DNA of 49,843 nucleotides, filler included, from Basidiobolus ranarum (taxonomy: Eukaryota): assembly GCA_040143965.1 (NCBI GenBank). It is 2 parts of 2 records of this genome, joined end to end, with 100 filler letters (N's around TTAATTAATTAA, not from the genome) between each part and the next. Parts side by side here need not be neighbours in the genome. Positions count along the whole stretch, not along the records: positions 25,003 to 49,843 come from JASJQH010007022.1; 1 more part is not named here. One strand, written 5' to 3'. The first letter of the stretch is position 1, and every line of letters begins with the position of its first letter. Below the pieces are notes generated by a model. It worked only from the letters and a program-made list of their open reading frames with translations. It was not told the origin of the DNA and did no database searches. This document shows positions 21,762-49,843 of the stretch, one piece after another. Both the position numbers and the translations under genes were made by a program.

Positions 21762-24700
21762 ATGGCTACTCCTATTAGAGACGAGGATGTACCTCGTCTC
21801 TTCGAAGAGCTCTTGGTACGTTCGTCTAACTTTACTAGGACATAAGGTTTTAGGAATACTAAGCAATAGGTTTGATGAATAGAATGAGATGGGGCTTGAT
21901 GATTCCAAAAAGGCTCCTCTTAGGATGCTTTCAGTTCAGCACAAAAAGAATATGCTTACAGCACAGAAAGATTTAAAAGCACAAGATGTACGTCATAACT
22001 TTAAAACTTCTAACGTTAAACGAAAACAGGCTAATTTTCAAGGATATTTAGGCAAGAAATCGGCGCTCAGGACGTTTTGATAGCATGCCTGAATTTTATA
22101 TTCGTAAACTAACCGAAGTGGATGTTCGGTATCTTTCAGTAAAAGACCTATCCTCGTTACGGGTTTCTTTGACCACTCAATCCCTAACGTAGGTACTTAC
22201 TAGAGAAGTTTAAAACGAAAGGTCTAACTGACAAACTATTTTTTCAGGTGGGTGAACCAATTCATACAGTCAAAAGGACTTCGACTGCTCTCAAATATCC
22301 TAGTTTCACTCAGTCACAAGCAAAAAAGGTAGCCTCATATTAAACCTTCGCCTAGCGAAGAAGTCGGTTTATTGACGACCATTTTTCTAGATCAAATTCA
22401 GACAACCAGATAGAGCATGAAGTTGTGCGTTGTTTAAAGGCGTTGTTTAACACTAAAGTAATTTTAGCGATTTATATCTTTAGCTTTGCTTTCCTATTTA
22501 ACTTATGCTCATTCTTGATAGTGTGGAATCCAAGACGCCTTGAATCAACCTAGATCTGTCACCAACCTTTGTTTCTCGCTGGATTCTCCACTTCTTAGTA
22601 CTCGAAAATTGGTAGTGGAGGTGATGATTTTCTTGTGCCATTACGAATTACCGGTTGGACTCAATCATGTGCTGAAAGGAATACAGACGGTGGAGCAGGC
22701 GCGCAAAGAGTACGAGCCGTTTGAGGCTTGGTTGAGACCTTTTGAATCGACTATTGATGGTCGTGGACGAATGGGTTCCCTATCCAGCTCTATCCAGCAT
22801 AATGATCACGACATTGTGGATTACACCGTAAGTAATTGATACTTCTCACCACAGTACTGTTTCTAACGCCTTTCATCTAGTTATCCAATTTGATCCTGCT
22901 CAACAGTATTGTTGGAAACTGCAGCGAAATAGAGCTAAGGATTCACATCAGAACCCAGATGAACGCAGCTGGTCTTCGTCGAGTCATTCGAGTATGTATT
23001 TATGTTCCTGATTCTAAAGTTCCACCGCATTAGCCTTACAATTGTTTATGATAGAAAGTAAAAACGTTTAGCAGCGAGGCCATAAACCTTCAGGTTTCTA
23101 AATATCTTTTCGAAGCGGAGCAAGATCTCTTGTATTTAATGGATGAGCACCCAGCAGAGGTTGATGATTCCTCTTCTATTATGGCGCCTTCATTGCCCGA
23201 TACTTCCGATCCGCTGGCCTTATTTCAAATGCTTCTATCTTCAGTTGAGCACACTCCTTGCTATAACCATTTCTTATCCATCCTACAGCATATGATTATG
23301 ATTCCTTCAGATCCTATAACCAAGTACGTAATACTCTAAATATCGCTTTTGTCCCATACTAATATTAATCCTTCCACAGGCAAAAGTTCTACAAATTGAT
23401 TGATAAGCTGGTGATGCAAATTATTCTTGACGATTCCGGAATGCCGCAGGATCTCTCGAGTGTATATGGTGTTTCTGTTGGTAATATCCTTTCTCGTTTC
23501 GGAAACGAAGACAAAATCGACGAATTGCAGGAAGAACTTAAAAATGCTAGGGTTGAAGCAGCAGAGGCCAACAAGAAGCGCACTGATATCGAGATGGAGC
23601 TCGGGATGATCAACGATGGTCTTTTTGGTAACATGAAGACGAGAATAGCTTCTCTTGAGGATATGTTGGTCATGTCACGAAACACAGTTGAACTTCAGAA
23701 GAGTCAGATTATTCAGTTGACTGAAGAGCTGGAGCGGATGAAATCTGGTAATTCGGGAGTACAGCATACAGCTCTTCCGTTGTTGGCATTTCCCACTGCG
23801 TTTTCGTTCCCAAATCCCGAAGATTACATGCCTTCATCTAACCACCAAAATAGTGGAGTAACTCCTCAAGACACATCCGAAAATTACTGGGGTTCTTCCA
23901 TCGTGTCAATGCCAAAGCCAGATTTGATCTATAATGCTGGGCCTACAAATTTCTCCAATAACGATGGTAACTCGGGACCAACGTCGCCCTTATACACCAC
24001 GTCGTTCCCTCAATTAGGGGGAGGATCCTCTGAGGCCTCTCTGCCTATCGTTCCACCCGAGTCACCTTATTCCTCCACCTTCCCCCACTATACTGGAGGC
24101 CTTTCTCCAGTCTCACCAGGTATGTCATTTCATATATTTTTATCACTAGTAAATTTAATTTATATTTATATCATGATTAGCTTCACATACCGATTTTCCT
24201 GGACAATATCATAATTCTCCATATCATTCAAACACTTCTCCAGTAGCTCCCGTAGCACCAGTGGCCTATGAGCCCATTGGGTCTGGATATGCTAGTGATT
24301 ATTATGGTGGCCATGGTGGTGCACCTCCGATGCCATACATCCCTCAGATTGGAGGGTATCCATTTCCCACTCTACCAAACCAAAGCTACGACTATAACCG
24401 ATATGATTGGAATCCCCCTTATAACCCCAATTCTTATGACAATTACGGCCCTCCGCCACCTATGCCTCAACCCGGACAGCAATTCCCGGGACATTATCTG
24501 CCAAGTATAGATTCCCGAATATCCGCTGGAACATCGGAGATGCCATATTATGATCCTATGTCTCCGTCTCTTCCACTACCACTTCCGCCTCGACCTCCTA
24601 CTAAAACCCAACCAGACTCACAAACTGAGGTTTCTCTAGATCAACATGGCGTTCTACCTGAAAACCCCAATGAGATGTCGCAATCTCACAATAGTACCCC

Positions 24701-24902
24701 AGATGTACTGAAGCCACCTTCTGAGAGTCAGATTCCACCGACTCCTTTACCTGAATCATCTGATATTGCTCCTCCGCCACCACCACCCCCTCTTATTGAT
24801 TTATTGAGTAGAAAGTTGACATTTATAGTTTTGTCAAGATGTAAACAAACTAACATGTAGAATATGTTAAGGAAGGTCCTAGGAACATGTGTGCAAAGTT
24901 TG
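21762..24902 (+). CDS. Diaphanous-related formin N-terminal part (GBD/FH3, coiled coil, Pro-rich FH1-like), truncated by the assembly gap
   Basis: Tentative exon 1 MATPIRDEDVPRLFEELL spliced to NEMGLDDSKKAPLRML. FH3 motifs LRVSLTTQSLTWVNQF, EVVRCLKALFN, RKLVVEVMIFLC, IDGRGRMGS, RIHIRTQMNAAGL, HFLSILQHM, then PPPPPPP near 24770-24790. No FH2 domain before the Ns. Confidence 0.8.
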
Positions 24903-25002
24903 NNNNNNNNNNNNNNNNNNNNNNNNNNNNNNNNNNNNNNNNNNNNTTAATTAATTAANNNNNNNNNNNNNNNNNNNNNNNNNNNNNNNNNNNNNNNNNN
25001 NN
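24903..25002. other. Assembly gap/linker: 44 N + TTAATTAATTAA + 44 N
   Basis: Exactly 100 bp with a central palindromic 12-mer (24947-24958) that places stop codons in all six frames, typical of an artificial contig joiner. Confidence 0.95.
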
Positions 25003-42278: not shown

Positions 42279-44736
42279 ATGTCTGTTGTTGGTACGTTTA
42301 CTTTTCCTAACAAATACTTTCCCCATTTAAACTTGTTTACTAACCCCATCCATAGGTATTGATTTCGGTTCTCTTCAATCTATTATCGCTGTTGCTAGAA
42401 ACAGAGGTATTGACATTGTCTGTAATGAAGTGTCAAACAGAGTGACTCCGTAAGTAATTCCCCTGGTCCACGTGTTGGTTCTAAGTCATAATAACTAACT
42501 TCAATGTTTCCTTAGTTCTTTGATTTCTTTCGGTCCTAAGCAAAGATTCCTCGGTGAGGCCGCTAAGACCCAAGAAGTTTCCAACTTCAAGAACACCGTT
42601 GGCTCCCTTAAGCGTTTAGCCGGTAGAGCTTTCGATGACAAAGAAATTCAAGAGATCGAATCCAAATTCATCAACGCTCAGCTTGTCGACGTCGATGGTC
42701 AAGTTGGTGTTAAAGTTAGATATGGCGAATCTGAGACCTCTTTCTCTGCCACTCAACTTGTTGCCATGTACTTGGGTAAATTAAGAGATATTGCTGCCGC
42801 TGAACTTAAATCTCCCGTCTCCGATGTTGTTATCTCTGTACCCGCATGGTTCACTGATTCTCAAAGAAAAAGTATTCTTGATGCTTCCGAGATTGCTGGT
42901 CTTAACTGCCTTCGTCTTATTAATGATACCACCGCCGCTGCTTTCGGTTATGGTATTACCAAGACTGATCTCCCCGAAGATAAGCCTCGTCATGTTGTCT
43001 TCGCTGATTGTGGTTATTCCTCTTTCACCGTCGCCGTCGTTGCCTTCAAGAAGGGACAATTGACTGTCAAGTCTGTCGCTTTTGATCGTCACTTTGGTGG
43101 TAGATACATTGACGAAGTATTGGTTAACCATTTCGCCGAACAATTCAAAGAGAAGTACAAGATTGATGTCAAGTCCAACCCTAAGGCACTTTTCCGTCTT
43201 CGTGCTGGTTGCGAGAAGCTTAAGAAGGTCTTATCCGCTAATACTCAAGCTCCTTTGAACGTTGAATCTATCATGAATGATATTGATGTTTCTGCCTTGA
43301 TGACCAGAGACGAATTCGAAGAACTTTGCCACGATATGTTGACTCGTATGGAGGATACCCTTAACAGAGCTTTGAAGGATTCTGGCTTAACTGTTGAGGA
43401 GATTGACACCATCGAAATGGTCGGTGGATCCACTCGTATTCCTGCTTTCAAGGAACGTCTCAGCAAGTTCTTCGGAAAGGAAATCAGTTTCACTCTTAAC
43501 CAAGATGAAGCCGTTGCCAGAGGTTGTGCTCTTCAATGCGCTGTTCTCTCACCTGTCTTCAAGGTTCGTGAATTCTCAGTTCAAGATGTTACCAGCTACC
43601 CCGTTAAGTTCACTTGGACCGCTTCTGACTCTGGTGCTGAATCTCAACTCGAAGTATTCAGCCACAACAACCCTGTTCCCAGCACCAAGGTTCTCACTTT
43701 CTACAGAAAGGATAGCTTTGACGTTGAGGCTTACTACTCCAACCCCGAGCTTTTGCCTCCTGGTGTCAACCCTTGGATCGGTAAGTACAGCATTAAGAAT
43801 GTTGTCCCCACTGCCGATGGTGAGCTCTCCACTGTAAAGGTTAAGGCTCGTCTTAACGTTCACGGTATCGTTAGCGTTGAAGGTGCTTACATCGCTGAAG
43901 AGATCATCAAGGAAGAGGAGGAGGAACCCACTCCTATGGAGACTGATGGTGAGAAGAAGGAAGAGGAGACCACCGAGGCCCCTGCTCCCAAGAAGGTCAA
44001 GAAGATCATCAAGAAGACTGAACTTCCAGTTGTCGGTGGTAACACCAATACTGACAAATCAGTAGTTAACAAGCTCAGAGAGCTTGAGAACGAAATGTAC
44101 GCAGCTGATAAATTGGTCGCTGATACCGAAGAACGTAAGAATGCTTTGGAAGAGTATGTTTACGATACTCGTAGTAAATTGGAATCCAAGTTCAAGGATT
44201 TCGTTGTTCCTGATGTCAAGGAAAGCTTCTCCAAGCAACTTTACGACACTGAAGACTGGCTTTATGATGAAGGTGAAGATGCCACTAAGAGTGTTTATGT
44301 TAACAAGCTTAACGAGTTGAAGGTCATCGGTGACCCAATTGCTCGTCGTTGCAGAGAATACGAGGAACGTCCTAGATCTGCTCGTAGTCTTCGTGAGACC
44401 ATCGAGAAATACGCCATTGAAGTTACCAGCAATGATCCTCGTTATGAACATATTCCCGAGGAGGAGAAGAAGTCCATCATTGACCGTTGCGAAAAGGTTC
44501 AAGCATGGCTCGCCGAGAAGATGGATCAACAAAGCGTCCTCACCAAAGTACAAGATCCCATTGTTACTTCTCAAGAAATCCTTAAGGAAAGAGATTCCTT
44601 GATCAACTTTGCCACTCCTATCCTCAACAAGCCTAAGCCCAAGGTCGAGCCACCCAAGGAGGAAGCCCCTGCCCCAGCACCCGAGAAGGCCGAAGACAAA
44701 CCTAAGGCTGACACACCCGAAATGGAGATTGATTAA
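42279..44736 (+). CDS. SSE1: Hsp110 / Sse1 (Hsp70-family nucleotide-exchange chaperone)
   Basis: Exons 42279-42291, 42356-42449, 42516-44736 give MSVVGIDFG...[18 protein letters not shown]. Also [41 protein letters not shown]-terminal MEID. Strong codon bias. Confidence 0.97.
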
Positions 44737-45468: not shown

Positions 45469-45963
45469 TTAGACGATTTGTTGTGAGGGATAGGTATGAG
45501 TTTTCCCCATTTTAGGTACAAAGTGCTTTAGTGTACGTACTATTCGATTAAACCACAATCTTAAACGTGCTTTCCTTCTTCTACGTCCTATCATGGATAC
45601 TGAATCGTCCAAATCTTTACTAAAGTATTGTTGAGGATTTGGTAAGTCCTCTAAACTGTGGATGGAGGGAGGTCGAAAGGTTCTGTTTTCCGTTGAATGT
45701 AGCATCTCCTCTTTATCACTGAAAGAACTTTGTAAACTAACATATTGAACTACTCTAGCTCGTTTGGATTCTTTAGCGGGTGGCATCTAAATGAAGTTAA
45801 AAGTGAGAAAAAAATGATTCCAAAAAAAAAACCAATTCCAAAATTCCCTTTCTACCTGGGTATTATGAGCCAATAAATTCTCTTGTGTTAATGGTATGGC
45901 TTTGGGTGGTTTCAACTTCTTGGAAGTATCAGAACGTTTGGTTAAAGATAGAAAATTGGGCAT
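45469..45963 (-). CDS. Hypothetical 141-aa basic protein (two exons)
   Basis: The ATG at 45786 is directly preceded by a TTAG acceptor. Upstream exon 45963-45856 (MPNFLSLTKRSDTSKKLKPPKAIPLTQENLLAHNTQ, donor GTAGAA) joins in phase 0. Confidence 0.55.
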
Positions 45964-46483: not shown

Positions 46484-46557
46484 TGCAATTCAATAACACA
46501 ATCTCAATCTCAACCTCTGCAATTCAATAACACAATATCAATCTCAGTCTCAACCTC
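46484..46557. repeat. Tandem duplication of about 34-40 bp
   Basis: tgcaattcaataacacaatctcaatctcaacctc followed by tgcaattcaataacacaatatcaatctcagtctcaacctc. Confidence 0.8.
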
Positions 46558-46659
46558 GATCTCACTGGTTGCCCCATCTCTGCACAAAAAAATTTACCCC
46601 TATGTGGCTTGTACGGTACTTGCACAGCGCATTACCAGAAATCAACAATAACATATGGA

Positions 46660-46697
46660 TTGGTGCTGTACGGGTTGGTGCTGTACGGGTTGGTGCT
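46660..46697. repeat. 15-bp tandem repeat x2.5 just downstream of the DUF1853-like stop codon
   Basis: ttggtgctgtacggg ttggtgctgtacggg ttggtgct. Confidence 0.85.
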
Positions 46698-46724
46698 TCT
46701 TTTATCACAAAAGAAAATAAGAAA

Positions 46725-48164
46725 CTAAACAAAAGGCCATTCATCTCCAACAACAAATCCACGTGATACCTCGACCCAACTGCCCACCCATTGAGTATCA
46801 CTAGTTAGTTTACTACTCATGTCCAACATGAGATCACGTGACTCGTATTTGACATGAACCAACATAATGGATAAGCGAGTTGCGGAGAAATGTTGTTGAA
46901 GCATATCAAATGCCTTATCGGGGGTCACTAGTTCTATTGGACTCTCAAGTATGTGAGGGTGCGAGCAGAGAGGTGATGGTGGTTCACCCAAGGCAACGGT
47001 GCTATATGGCTCATCGACGAATATCCGTAATGGTCCCATGTAGTCATGCTTTGGGAGGAAAGCAATGAGATGACCACTAGGGATACACAACGATGGGTTG
47101 TCATTGATATGGGTCCATTTGAACTGGTGTGCCCATCCTTTCCAATGCTTAGAGTTCAGTTGGAATTGCCAGGACTCGGAAAGCTCAGGTGGGACGTTCA
47201 TCAAATTTTGGTCGCACCACATGGAATAGGGGTAGAAAAGACACCCTTTGACAAAGATTTCACTGTGCGTGGGTAGTGGGATATTGCCATGAAGTAAACT
47301 CTCTTTAGCTGAAGGATGTGTAGCAAGAATACAGGATGCACTAAAGCATTGTCGTGCTTTCCTTTCTAACGTATCACCTACAAGGGAATTAGTTTATTTT
47401 CAAACCAAGTGACATGGTTCCCCCACACTTACTTGATTTAGGTCCTTTGAACGAGTTTAACTGCAACTGACTTAACTCTTCGATTCTCTGACAGGAGCCC
47501 AACGTTTTCGCATCAAAGATGTAGTATTTGATGGCCACTTCCCAATGGGTGGCCCGAGTTGTTCCACCCTCATCTTCACATACTTCCTCAAAAACCAAAT
47601 CTAAATCCCCAATAGTTCTTCTGGTATTGGTCTTCTTCACCTTCTTATTGCCTTTCTTATACCCAGCAAAAGGTAACTCGGAAAGTGGTACCACCTCTGC
47701 TTCTATCACAGGAGGAGTATCGAACAATTGAACACAACTCCACACCGAACCTATCACCACTCTTTCACGTAACCAGAACTCCACCAACATAGCAAAGTAA
47801 CTTCCTAACCTATGAATAGCTTTCTGTTGACTCAAAAAAGTGTACACTGGAGTGGGATCTTCATCGAGGTCTAGATAGGTTCTTTTAAGAGTAAGAGAAA
47901 GCTCTGAATTACAACCCCAAAGGGTTCAAGAGTTTTTCTTACCTTCTAACCAACTTCTTGACCTTTCGTATAGTTTTAAGCTCCATTGATGGTTTACGAA
48001 ACCATGAGTACCTTGAAGGAAATCTTGAAAGAAAGGCTCTTCAGTTAAAACCCTGAAGCATTAATCTTAGTATATAGAAAAGTGTTCTTTGAAAAGAGAG
48101 AAACAAGGTACCAAGTTAAGTGTCTGACTACTTTATGTCTATAAATTCTACTTGTATGATGCAT
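46725..48164 (-). CDS. DUF1853-like protein (predicted PD-(D/E)XK nuclease fold), four exons
   Basis: Exons 48164-48112, 48052-47943, 47870-47433, 47377-46725, all GT-AG and frame-consistent. Motifs VRHLTWVL, WLEDLDEDP, RLGSYFAML..FWL, TIGDLDL, HWEVAIKYY, GP..SDTL..K, KGCLFYP, LN..HWKGW, EVSRGFVV..WP. Confidence 0.8.
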
Positions 48165-48999
48165 GATATTTCATATCAATTAACAAGTAAAACTACCTTT
48201 ATATCACTTCCATTCCCTTTTCTAGTTGGATTGAAAATTGATGTCCCAATTTCGTTCACTGGAAATTTTCATCATTACCTAATATAAATGCTAATTTGTT
48301 TGGCGAATGTTTGAAGAGGTCGTGATAGGATATTTTTTCACCGAATTAAAATCTATGATGTTTATCTCGTTTAGGAAGTCAGGTAAATGGTTGAATCATT
48401 TAAGATAGTAAGTTGTCCCAGTGGTTATATATCTTGGTATACCTACTTGAGATGCATAGCACATGTAATATGAGGGATTCTCTCATAGTTGGACCTCCAC
48501 AATATCTTATATCCTGAAGTCATGTTAGGTTTCATTTATTTCTGGAGATTAAAAACCACATTGCAGAGTATTAGACAAATGTATAAAGCTGTAAAGTTGA
48601 AGAAACAATTTATACTTGTATTTACATTATGAAATATTCAGTCTCTGAAGCAAGTACACCAAGAATATTTCATAGTATATAGTCTCAGAGTACAACTCCA
48701 GAAGATCTCAGTATGACTTCCTCTTTTGCTAGCAAAATAACACTCCAAAGAGTTACCATATATTTTGAGTCAATTTGGTAATATCTTTCAAGTTCATAAA
48801 TATACAAATGATGACAACTCCTTCCTCCAATCCCAAATTCCATAAATCAACTATGGGCCCCATATATTTACTCTAGAGAAATAACCAAAATCTTTGCAAT
48901 AACCTACACTTGGGCTTAGCCCTTAAGATCTCAAATGATAGAAATACATATTTCTAGAACTTAGATACAGATGTGTTGAAATTAGCTTTGCCTAAGCAC

Positions 49000-49740
49000 C
49001 TATATGATATATTGATTCAGGAGCCTCCCAACATTTCATTGATGAAAATATTGGCTTGTGGATTATGAAGAGATCCCAATTAGAAAGGTTTTCATAAGAG
49101 ATGACTGCCCATTGGATGCTATTGGAATGGAAACAATTCAAGTTAATTTGACTGGAGCTTCTGTAGAGAAAGTTATACTTTTAAGAATGTACTACATGCT
49201 ACAGATATTGGCAAGAATTCAATATCCATATGCAAGGCCATCTCAGAAGGGCAAAAAAATAATTTTGATAAGTCAAGATGCACCATCACTGATCACAATG
49301 GGAATTATTCAGCTTCTAGAGAAAAGGGTCAGAACTTATATAAACTTACACATATATATGATCAAATTTATTGATGATGATACAATACACACTTGGGTCC
49401 ACTCTCTATTTTTAGAGATTTTAAAACACTTGTTGAGACTGAAACTGGAACTAAAATAAAAAAAATACATGCTGTTGATGTGGGAGAATATATTTCAACA
49501 TTATTTACACACCTTTGCAAAGTTCATGGAGTTAAGCAAGAAACTACTGCCCCCTATTCACCTTTACAAAATAGAGTTGCTGCAAGAGCTAACAGGACTA
49601 TAATAGCAATGGCAAGGTCTATGATAAGTGCACAGAATTTATCTCATAACTTTTGGGTGGAATCTGCAGCTACAGCTGTATATCTGAAGCATAGGAATTC
49701 TACTAGAAGTCTGTCTAAGTCTGCACCATATCCAGCTGTC
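49000..49740 (+). mobile_element. Degenerate Ty1/copia LTR-retrotransposon pol fragment (protease, pre-integrase region, integrase core)
   Basis: *YIDSGASQHF (49005-49037), VLHATDIGKNSISI, FDKSRCTI, NLYKL, FIDD, KIKKIHAVDVGEY, TAPYSPLQNRVAARANRTI..MARSM, FWVESAATAVYL, in protease-then-integrase (copia) order. Frameshifts and stops present. Boundaries approximate. Confidence 0.88.
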
Positions 49741-49843
49741 ATGATTCTGATCTCGGCATACTGATCCACTGCATATGGAACTCTTCTATTATTAGATTAT
49801 GACATCATATCTACTGTGCCATCCCTTCTTGGCAATCTGGTGT

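Follow-up and report, generated by a model that had tools for sequence, protein, structure and literature searches.

DUF1853 (PF08907, COG3782) is a protein family whose function is unknown and whose gene context is conserved only within bacterial families, as stated in passages of PMC3424549. Passages of PMC3045609 assign the family by profile-profile comparison to the PD-(D/E)XK phosphodiesterase fold, with UPF0102 (3fov) as the closest match named; its third motif is an unusual E-x-x-x-K (EXXXK), whereas solved PD-(D/E)XK nucleases have (D/E)-x-K. According to the same passages, plants, algae and Phytophthora also have DUF1853, as part of proteins that exceed the bacterial ones in length. 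By titles and passages, a full-text search of the literature on DUF1853, PF08907 and COG3782 gave nothing about fungi, and neither PF08907 nor DUF1853 occurs in one supplementary file of PMC11291939. PMC7466969 deals with the general topic of horizontal transfer into Basidiobolus. Here we describe a DUF1853 gene on the minus strand, positions 48164 to 46725, of a 49,843-nucleotide (nt) stretch of Basidiobolus ranarum DNA, referred to below as the window. An initial annotation of this stretch had read the locus as an intact, intron-containing gene of bacterial type, acquired horizontally long ago. We find that it is a genuine, intact, four-exon nuclear gene of B. ranarum with three short host-type introns. 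On the whole of the evidence, we consider it probable that this gene was acquired from a bacterium before B. ranarum and B. meristosporus split, and that its product is a nuclease-like protein.

The minus strand was read from 48164 to 46725, and the four exons were joined at the coordinates that the initial annotation had given for them. The features of the gene are as follows, P0001 being the homologue from Basidiobolus meristosporus CBS 931.73 (K493DRAFT_26836, 423 amino acids (aa)).

48112-48164, minus strand: exon 1, 53 nt; ATG at 48164-48162; residues 1-17 plus two bases of codon 18 (MHHTSRIYRHKVVRHLTW); alignable to the P0001 N-terminus and to the bacterial VRDLAW block; absent from the deposited B. 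ranarum model
48053-48111, minus strand: intron 1, 59 nt, GTACCT...TACTAAG...CAG, phase 2; junction gap-free against P0001
47943-48052, minus strand: exon 2, 110 nt, residues 18-54; translation aligns to P0001 residues 17-52
47871-47942, minus strand: intron 2, 72 nt, GTAAGA...CTAG, phase 1; carries an in-frame stop
47433-47870, minus strand: exon 3, 438 nt, residues 55-200; includes motifs II and III and the motif I position
47793-47791, minus strand: motif I position, Ala81, in exon 3
47617-47718, minus strand: fungus-specific insert, limits approximate, about residues 106-139, between two core strands; ends in the basic run YKKGNKKVKKTNTRR
47601-47599, minus strand: Asp145 of motif II (GDLD), in exon 3
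47541-47539 and 47529-47527, minus strand: Glu165 and Lys169 of motif III (HWEVAIK), in exon 3
47378-47432, minus strand: intron 3, 55 nt, GTAAGT...AACTAAT...GTAG, phase 1
46725-47377, minus strand: exon 4, 653 nt, residues 201-417, then the TAG stop codon (46727-46725); includes the conserved Lys207 of the helix (47360-47358) as well as KGCLFYPY, HWKGW and, C-terminally, SRGFVVGDEWP

All these exon and intron coordinates proved correct. The joined exons (48164-48112 + 48052-47943 + 47870-47433 + 47377-46725 = 1254 nt) form a single uninterrupted frame of 417 codons and a terminal stop, with no internal stop, and all three introns keep the DUF1853 reading frame. The introns (59, 72 and 55 nt) are all of the GT..AG type, with 5' ends GTACCT, GTAAGA and GTAAGT, and CTAAG or CTAAT lies shortly 5' of the AG in introns 1 and 3. 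Their G+C content is 0.31 to 0.40, compared to 0.30 to 0.45 for the exons. If the gene is read unspliced, a stop is reached at codon 40; the stop-to-stop frame of exon 3 starts at 47925, with an in-frame stop just upstream, inside intron 2. A mechanical list of open reading frames (ORFs) shows only two fragments on the minus strand, 46725..47222 (165 aa) and 47389..47847 (152 aa). These two fragments had been described before, as had a series of family blocks running from VRHLTWVL to RGFVV...WP, and all were recovered here: the VRHLTW|VL block, which spans intron 1, then RLGSYFAM, GDLD, HWEVAIK and SRGFVVGDEWP.

Two features of the immediate surroundings were seen by eye. Upstream, a short reading frame on the minus strand (48174-48148) begins with an ATG at 48174, counts nine codons including its stop, and overlaps the main start codon at 48164 in a different frame. 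Downstream of the stop, the region 46500-46720 contains two to three copies of short direct repeats with a unit of about 15 bases (GCACCAACCCGTACA-like), as well as a duplicated stretch, GAGATTGAGATTG...TTATTGAATTGCA.

The protein is a full-length, 417-residue member of DUF1853. Pfam applies a gathering threshold of 25 bits to PF08907, and the exons, rather than the joined protein, were scored one by one. Both long exons pass the threshold: exon 3 (145 aa) with 37.0 bits (E 3.6e-9) and exon 4 (216 aa) with 30.7 bits (E 3.1e-7); P0001 scores 103.6 bits. We also built a profile of 317 positions from 115 non-fungal homologues, with no fungal sequence in it. On this profile the joined 417-aa protein scores 164.5 bits and is colinear with the family over positions 6-312 of 317, compared to 98.2 bits for the deposited 336-aa model. 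The family assignment of the initial annotation, for which a profile search had been proposed, is thereby upheld. The first 81 residues alone score 56.1 bits on the non-fungal profile, while the best of 200 shuffles scores 5.4; exons 1 and 2 are therefore supported by homology, beyond their splice signals. NCBIfam gave no match for any of five DUF1853 members (two fungal, three non-fungal).

When named proteins were searched with exon 4, the one match was P0001, with 57% identity over 100% of the exon. P0001 comes from a 137.5-kilobase (kb) contig and is publicly labelled 'DUF1853 family protein', so that the presence of the family in Basidiobolus is not new as a record. The same search with P0001 as query added P0002, which is the B. 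ranarum protein K7432_004319 (336 aa). Its sequence is that of the four-exon model from residue 82 to residue 417, without a single difference, and the intron 3 junction is read identically in it. However, P0002 starts at an internal Met and is without the 81 N-terminal residues (exons 1 and 2 and the start of exon 3) that hold the conserved N-terminal blocks of DUF1853. P0001 is colinear over its full length with the four-exon model; it has 57% identity across exon 4, and 58% when compared with the deposited B. ranarum protein. P0001 and the window protein both have Ala at the motif I position, GDLD, HWEVAIK, three inserts and a C-terminal GDEWPFV.

Conservation was followed in an alignment of two fungal and 28 non-fungal rows (A2), and in a second count over 115 non-fungal rows, for columns where one residue reaches at least 80%. 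Sixteen columns of A2 are invariant, fungal rows included, among them the Asp of motif II, the His-x-Glu-x-x-x-Lys pattern of motif III and the Lys of the helix. Sixty-eight columns reach the 80% level in the second count; the window protein keeps 48 of them and the B. meristosporus protein 52. At the predicted active site, Asp145 of motif II occupies a column with 100% Asp; the Glu before it is Asp in both fungi (GExD to GDxD). His163, Glu165 and Lys169 of motif III fall in columns that are 100% conserved, and Lys207, in the second core helix (DRLDxK), in one that is 99% Lys. The motif I position of the first core helix (E/Q, in RLGxYFExL) is Glu in 99% of the 115 non-fungal rows, but both fungal proteins carry Ala there (Ala81 of the window protein). 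In this respect both alignments bear out what had been stated in the initial annotation, namely that the motif II Asp and the Glu and Lys of E-x-x-x-K are retained while the Glu of the bacterial RLGxYFExL is Ala. Further changes common to both fungi are VRDLAW to VRHL(T/A)W, and SP to EE or GE. The window protein shares with bacterial DUF1853, mainly that of Gamma- and Betaproteobacteria, the Asp of motif II, both the Glu and the Lys of EXXXK, the Lys of the helix and the RGF..W block of the C-terminus. It differs by the motif I Glu to Ala change, an invariant Gln that is Ser, GD-x-D in place of GE-x-D, and three introns.

The Basidiobolus proteins (417 and 423 aa) are about 100 residues longer than those of 80 bacterial loci (median 319 aa). 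The additional length comes from three internal inserts that none of the 28 non-fungal rows of A2 has, and not from added domains. The first of them, the insert listed above, is basic: residues 101-142 of the window protein include 8 K/R, and the corresponding 44 residues of P0001 include 11. The insert of P0001 is about 9 residues longer and of different sequence. This basic loop may be a nuclear-import signal or a nucleic-acid binder. A hidden intron within the basic insert was considered and rejected: the one GT..AG pair that was examined by hand (89 nt) would break the frame, and the insert is open in frame in both Basidiobolus species.

Structures were predicted with AlphaFold2 for P0001, from alignment A2, and for a non-fungal homologue, P0003, from alignment A4. 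The P0001 model has a mean predicted local distance difference test score (pLDDT) of 82.0 and a predicted template modelling score (pTM) of 0.83, and the P0003 model a pLDDT of 94.3 and a pTM of 0.92. In the P0001 model, block pLDDT is 53 to 66 over the stretch equivalent to the basic insert, and the third insert (P0001 residues 333-346) is the only stretch with pLDDT below 50. The best Foldseek rows against the PDB, SduA for P0001 (E 0.067) and Card1 for P0003 (E 0.013), are statistically weak. For both models, most of the weak structural rows are PD-(D/E)XK nucleases aligned to the central core; they include AF1548, VRR_NUC, UPF0102 3fov, NucS, Hjc, TnsA, FokI, FAN1, MGME1, Exo5, HamA, McrC and the R2 endonuclease. 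The nuclease cores of Card1 6wxw, AF1548 1y88, VRR_NUC 4qbn, UPF0102 3fov, Hjc 1gef and SduA 8ps4 superpose weakly on P0001 residues ~59-284 (helix-strands-helix). The C-terminal domain of P0001 (~residues 289-423) is extra to these nucleases, without a clear match among solved PD-(D/E)XK nucleases, and gave only weak, unrelated structural rows. The models are consistent with a PD-(D/E)XK fold for the window protein, but do not prove it.

The most likely history of the gene, and the most likely action of its product, are as follows. A bacterium would have been the source, and the gene would have reached the Basidiobolus lineage ahead of the split between B. ranarum and B. meristosporus, a direction that we infer; it would then have gained introns, taken on host codon usage and diverged strongly. 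Three insertions would have been acquired, one of them a disordered basic loop. The protein would bind nucleic acid and cleave phosphodiester bonds by means of a divalent metal bound at Asp145 and Glu165, and Lys169 and Lys207 would play an assisting part. With Ala81 in place of the motif I Glu, the metal site would be altered, and the activity may thus be weakened or changed. The window protein is probably a metal-dependent nucleic-acid-cleaving or -binding protein with an altered active site.

The distribution of the family was surveyed in several ways. A phmmer search of 1.84 billion representatives with P0001 as query gave 726 matches at E<=1e-3, 121 at E<=1e-10 and a single one at E<=1e-30, which is the gene's own cluster. 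The next best match has 97.3 bits (E 7.7e-23) and is 316 aa long. Nearly all of the best 150 of the 726 matches are 280 to 360 aa long, with 30 to 45% identity over the matched stretches, and all 20 matches that were looked up are metagenome proteins. In a scan of prokaryotes (one genome per species, with a sequence pattern), 421 of the 470 pattern matches encode relatives. The best 80 of these 421 loci belong mainly to Gamma- and Betaproteobacteria (Moraxellaceae, Thiotrichaceae, Gallionellaceae/Nitrotoga), with a few in Bdellovibrionota, Chlamydiales, Planctomycetota, Flavobacteriales and SAR324. All 30 nearest clusters of the ESM Atlas are DUF1853, and the three shown are 96 to 100% bacterial. 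Scans of metagenome contigs with patterns derived from P0001 and from the alignment of the two Basidiobolus proteins (A3) gave no relatives among 52 and 595 pattern matches, respectively. The searches of named proteins gave only the two Basidiobolus proteins and three proteins of bacterial size. The family, which had been described as mostly bacterial, is thus overwhelmingly so in the phmmer, prokaryote-genome and ESM Atlas searches. Besides the Basidiobolus proteins, no fungal or opisthokont relative, of the kind that would speak for vertical inheritance, turned up in these searches, and among the 1.84 billion representatives the gene's own cluster is the only one at E<=1e-30. Within the databases searched, the distribution is patchy: one fungal lineage, Basidiobolus, and otherwise bacteria.

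The gene sits in an ordinary fungal context. The window also carries DBINO/SNF2 (INO80-type), HAD, muniscin, SF3A2, Sec7, PIGO/PIGG, CLASP and Hsp70-family genes. The G+C content at third codon positions (GC3) is 0.416 in the DUF1853 gene, compared to 0.373 and 0.465 in two neighbours, and its codon use correlates with theirs at 0.74 and 0.54, the two neighbours themselves being correlated at 0.56. By comparison with the rest of the window, in introns, codon use and eukaryotic neighbours, the DUF1853 gene is integrated and host-adapted. The two nearby features are:

42279-44736, plus strand: gene of the Hsp70 family (HSP70 profile, E 1.7e-154); two short introns near its 5' end
49046-49764, plus strand: neighbouring remnant of a Ty1/copia-like pol, decayed, with sub-threshold Pfam hits (Pol_BBD E 0.0058, rve 0.047, rve_3 0.023)

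One intron of the Hsp70-family gene resembles those of the DUF1853 gene (66 nt, 42450-42515, GTAAGT..ACTAAC..TAG), and its removal restores the reading; the other lies just after ATGTCTGTTGTTG at 42279. The pol remnant, some 0.9 kb upstream of the DUF1853 start codon, occupies two frames, and its domains follow one another as they would in a copia-type pol; it is a decayed element at best. The proximity to transposon-derived DNA that had been pointed out for this gene is consequently a weak one: pol-like hits are present in the expected order, but all are sub-threshold and some 0.9 kb away. Between the Hsp70-family and DUF1853 genes lies an open frame of 105 aa without a Pfam match (45469-45786, minus strand, MPPAKESKRARV...). 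Two further open frames, 23369-24214 and 24177-24860, likewise have no Pfam match. At the junction of the two joined parts of the window, two runs of 44 N (24903-24946 and 24959-25002) are separated by 12 bases.

A number of results weigh against the view of a bacterial acquisition that encodes a nuclease-like protein, some of them bearing on the origin of the gene and others on its function. The identity of the fungal protein to the best 80 prokaryotic loci is low, 23 to 34%, and by tblastn the highest values for named bacterial genomes are 28 to 34%. A quick, unrooted IQ-TREE phylogeny (LG+C20+F+G4) was computed on 117 rows, namely the two fungal proteins, 75 of the 80 named-locus proteins and the 40 best-ranked representatives (280 to 520 aa); five named loci below 280 aa (L026, L027, L029, L051 and L061) and P0036 (199 aa) were left out. 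The fungal pair has a support of 100 and a stem of 1.84 changes per site, but this stem joins an open part of the backbone (support 27), with no supported sister group and no donor. Between the fungal pair and the closest non-fungal row the distance is 3.49 changes per site, compared to a median of 2.95 for 1500 random non-fungal pairs, 15.7% of which are at least 3.49 apart. As the tree is unrooted, it cannot show direction, and the plant, algal and Phytophthora DUF1853 proteins described in passages of PMC3045609 stand outside both the tree and the comparison. For these two reasons, the bacterial origin rests on distribution, not on topology. P0001 may be an orthologue or a paralogue of the window gene. 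As to function, the motif I Glu to Ala change and the replacement of a 100%-conserved Gln by Ser, in both fungi, mean that catalysis may be lost. Foldseek gave no match in the PDB at E<=0.001 for either model; in an exhaustive VIA-align comparison, where Z below 8 is not decisive, the best Z was a weak 5.4 for P0001 (Card1 6wxw, root-mean-square deviation 4.2 A over 114 residues) and 4.6 for P0003. By sequence there is no solved relative (best E 0.3), and the full-text literature on DUF1853, PF08907 and COG3782 gave, by titles and passages, no characterised or assayed member. The old horizontal acquisition proposed in the initial annotation accordingly stays at the level of the plausible: it has the patchy, Basidiobolus-only fungal distribution in its favour, but neither a donor clade nor a direction comes out of the tree.

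One candidate for a donor lineage, the 362-aa metagenome protein P0006, was considered and rejected: it is only 26% identical to the fungal protein, branches apart from the fungi in the tree and is missing from the one-per-species set of prokaryotic genomes. Two peculiarities of P0006 were recorded. It is the only listed match that aligns in one stretch over residues 143-421 of the fungal protein, and, like the fungal proteins, it has an insert following the EXXXK motif and DTL in place of DRL ahead of the helix Lys.

A first alternative concerns the activity of the protein. Catalysis may have been lost altogether, leaving a non-enzymatic nucleic-acid-binding or scaffolding protein, or a gene that is drifting towards loss; this we regard as possible but unlikely. 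The loss of the motif I Glu (99% conserved) and of the Gln (100%), the change of 16 to 20 of the 68 conserved positions, the very long stem (1.84) and an identity of only 57 to 58% between congeners would all fit such a decay. On the other hand, frames of 417 and 423 codons are intact in two species, with all three introns keeping the frame, and no invariant column has changed, those of Asp145, Glu165, Lys169 and Lys207 included. Most of the changes at conserved positions, moreover, are common to both species, which fits one early shift followed by constraint.

A second alternative is that the gene did not come directly from a bacterium: DUF1853 may be old in eukaryotes and have disappeared from nearly all fungi, or the gene may have been taken from a plant, an alga or an oomycete that already had it. 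The eukaryotic members are known here by their description in passages of PMC3045609: they belong to the same Pfam family, and are longer than the bacterial forms, as are the Basidiobolus proteins (417 and 423 aa, against a bacterial median of 319 aa). The fungal branch is also as deep as the deepest non-fungal splits and joins no bacterial clade. However, among the 1.84 billion representatives no longer and closer relative was found, the best match after the gene's own cluster (97.3 bits) being of bacterial size, and the extra length of the fungal proteins comes from three inserts that the 28 non-fungal rows of A2 do not have. Retention from an old eukaryotic ancestor would, in addition, require many independent losses across fungi. 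We consider this origin improbable, and retain that from a bacterium.

A third possibility, that a bacterial anti-phage system gave rise to a eukaryotic nuclease of immunity or genome defence, echoes the initial annotation, in which a defence factor had been suggested; this suggestion was not borne out. Up to two neighbouring ORFs per side (105 ORFs in all) were examined at 30 diverse bacterial loci. The neighbours are of housekeeping type and differ by lineage, with no partner conserved across lineages at these 30 loci. A Fur-family regulator follows DUF1853 at 5 of the 30 loci (L005, L028, L031, L044 and L067), all in one gammaproteobacterial (Thiotrichaceae-like) clade; in the same clade, a LON substrate-binding-domain protein and a DUF3501 protein are each found at 4 of the 5 loci, and at none of the other 25. 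A DUF4147/MOFRL (glycerate-kinase-like) gene lies directly upstream, on the same strand and nearly abutting, at three loci (L002, L011 and L066), and nitroreductase and folE2 with GATase occur at two loci each. No methylase, helicase or defence-type ATPase partner was seen among the 105 neighbouring ORFs, and none of the five DUF1853 members (two fungal, three non-fungal) matches any of the 5027 defence models of PADLOC, nor is there a match in NCBIfam. DUF1853 looks like a stand-alone gene, inherited vertically for the most part. The presence of SduA/Shedu, Card1, Can2, HamA and McrC among the weak structural neighbours, and of a decayed retroelement about 0.9 kb upstream, would be in line with a defence role; the structural matches, however, reflect only the common PD-(D/E)XK core (Z<=5.4). 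With such varied housekeeping neighbours and no hit to a defence model, this role appears very unlikely. Lastly, bacterial contamination or an assembly artefact, which could be thought of since the nearest relatives outside Basidiobolus are bacterial-size and, where named, bacterial, is excluded for practical purposes by the three host-type spliceosomal introns, the host-like codon usage, the core eukaryotic genes that flank the DUF1853 gene, and the 57%-identical copy on the 137.5-kb contig of B. meristosporus.

We conclude that the DUF1853 gene is most likely one more, rather ordinary case of the uptake of bacterial genes for which Basidiobolus is known. It opens no long-standing question; what it provides is one well-documented addition to this uptake, intact, with host-type introns, and placed among core fungal genes. 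The public B. ranarum gene model is corrected by the addition of its 81 missing N-terminal residues. A bolder interpretation is that a bacterial PD-(D/E)XK enzyme has been domesticated in Basidiobolus, where the basic loop would serve for nuclear entry or for clamping nucleic acid, and where the remodelled metal site would serve a lineage-specific processing of nuclear DNA or RNA that has no counterpart in other fungi. We hold this to be doubtful, but if it were true, the fungal protein could give the first function for DUF1853. In any event, the gene is a natural variant in which one predicted catalytic residue is gone and the others are kept, and, once DUF1853 is assayed, it may help decide which residues matter for this nuclease-like family.

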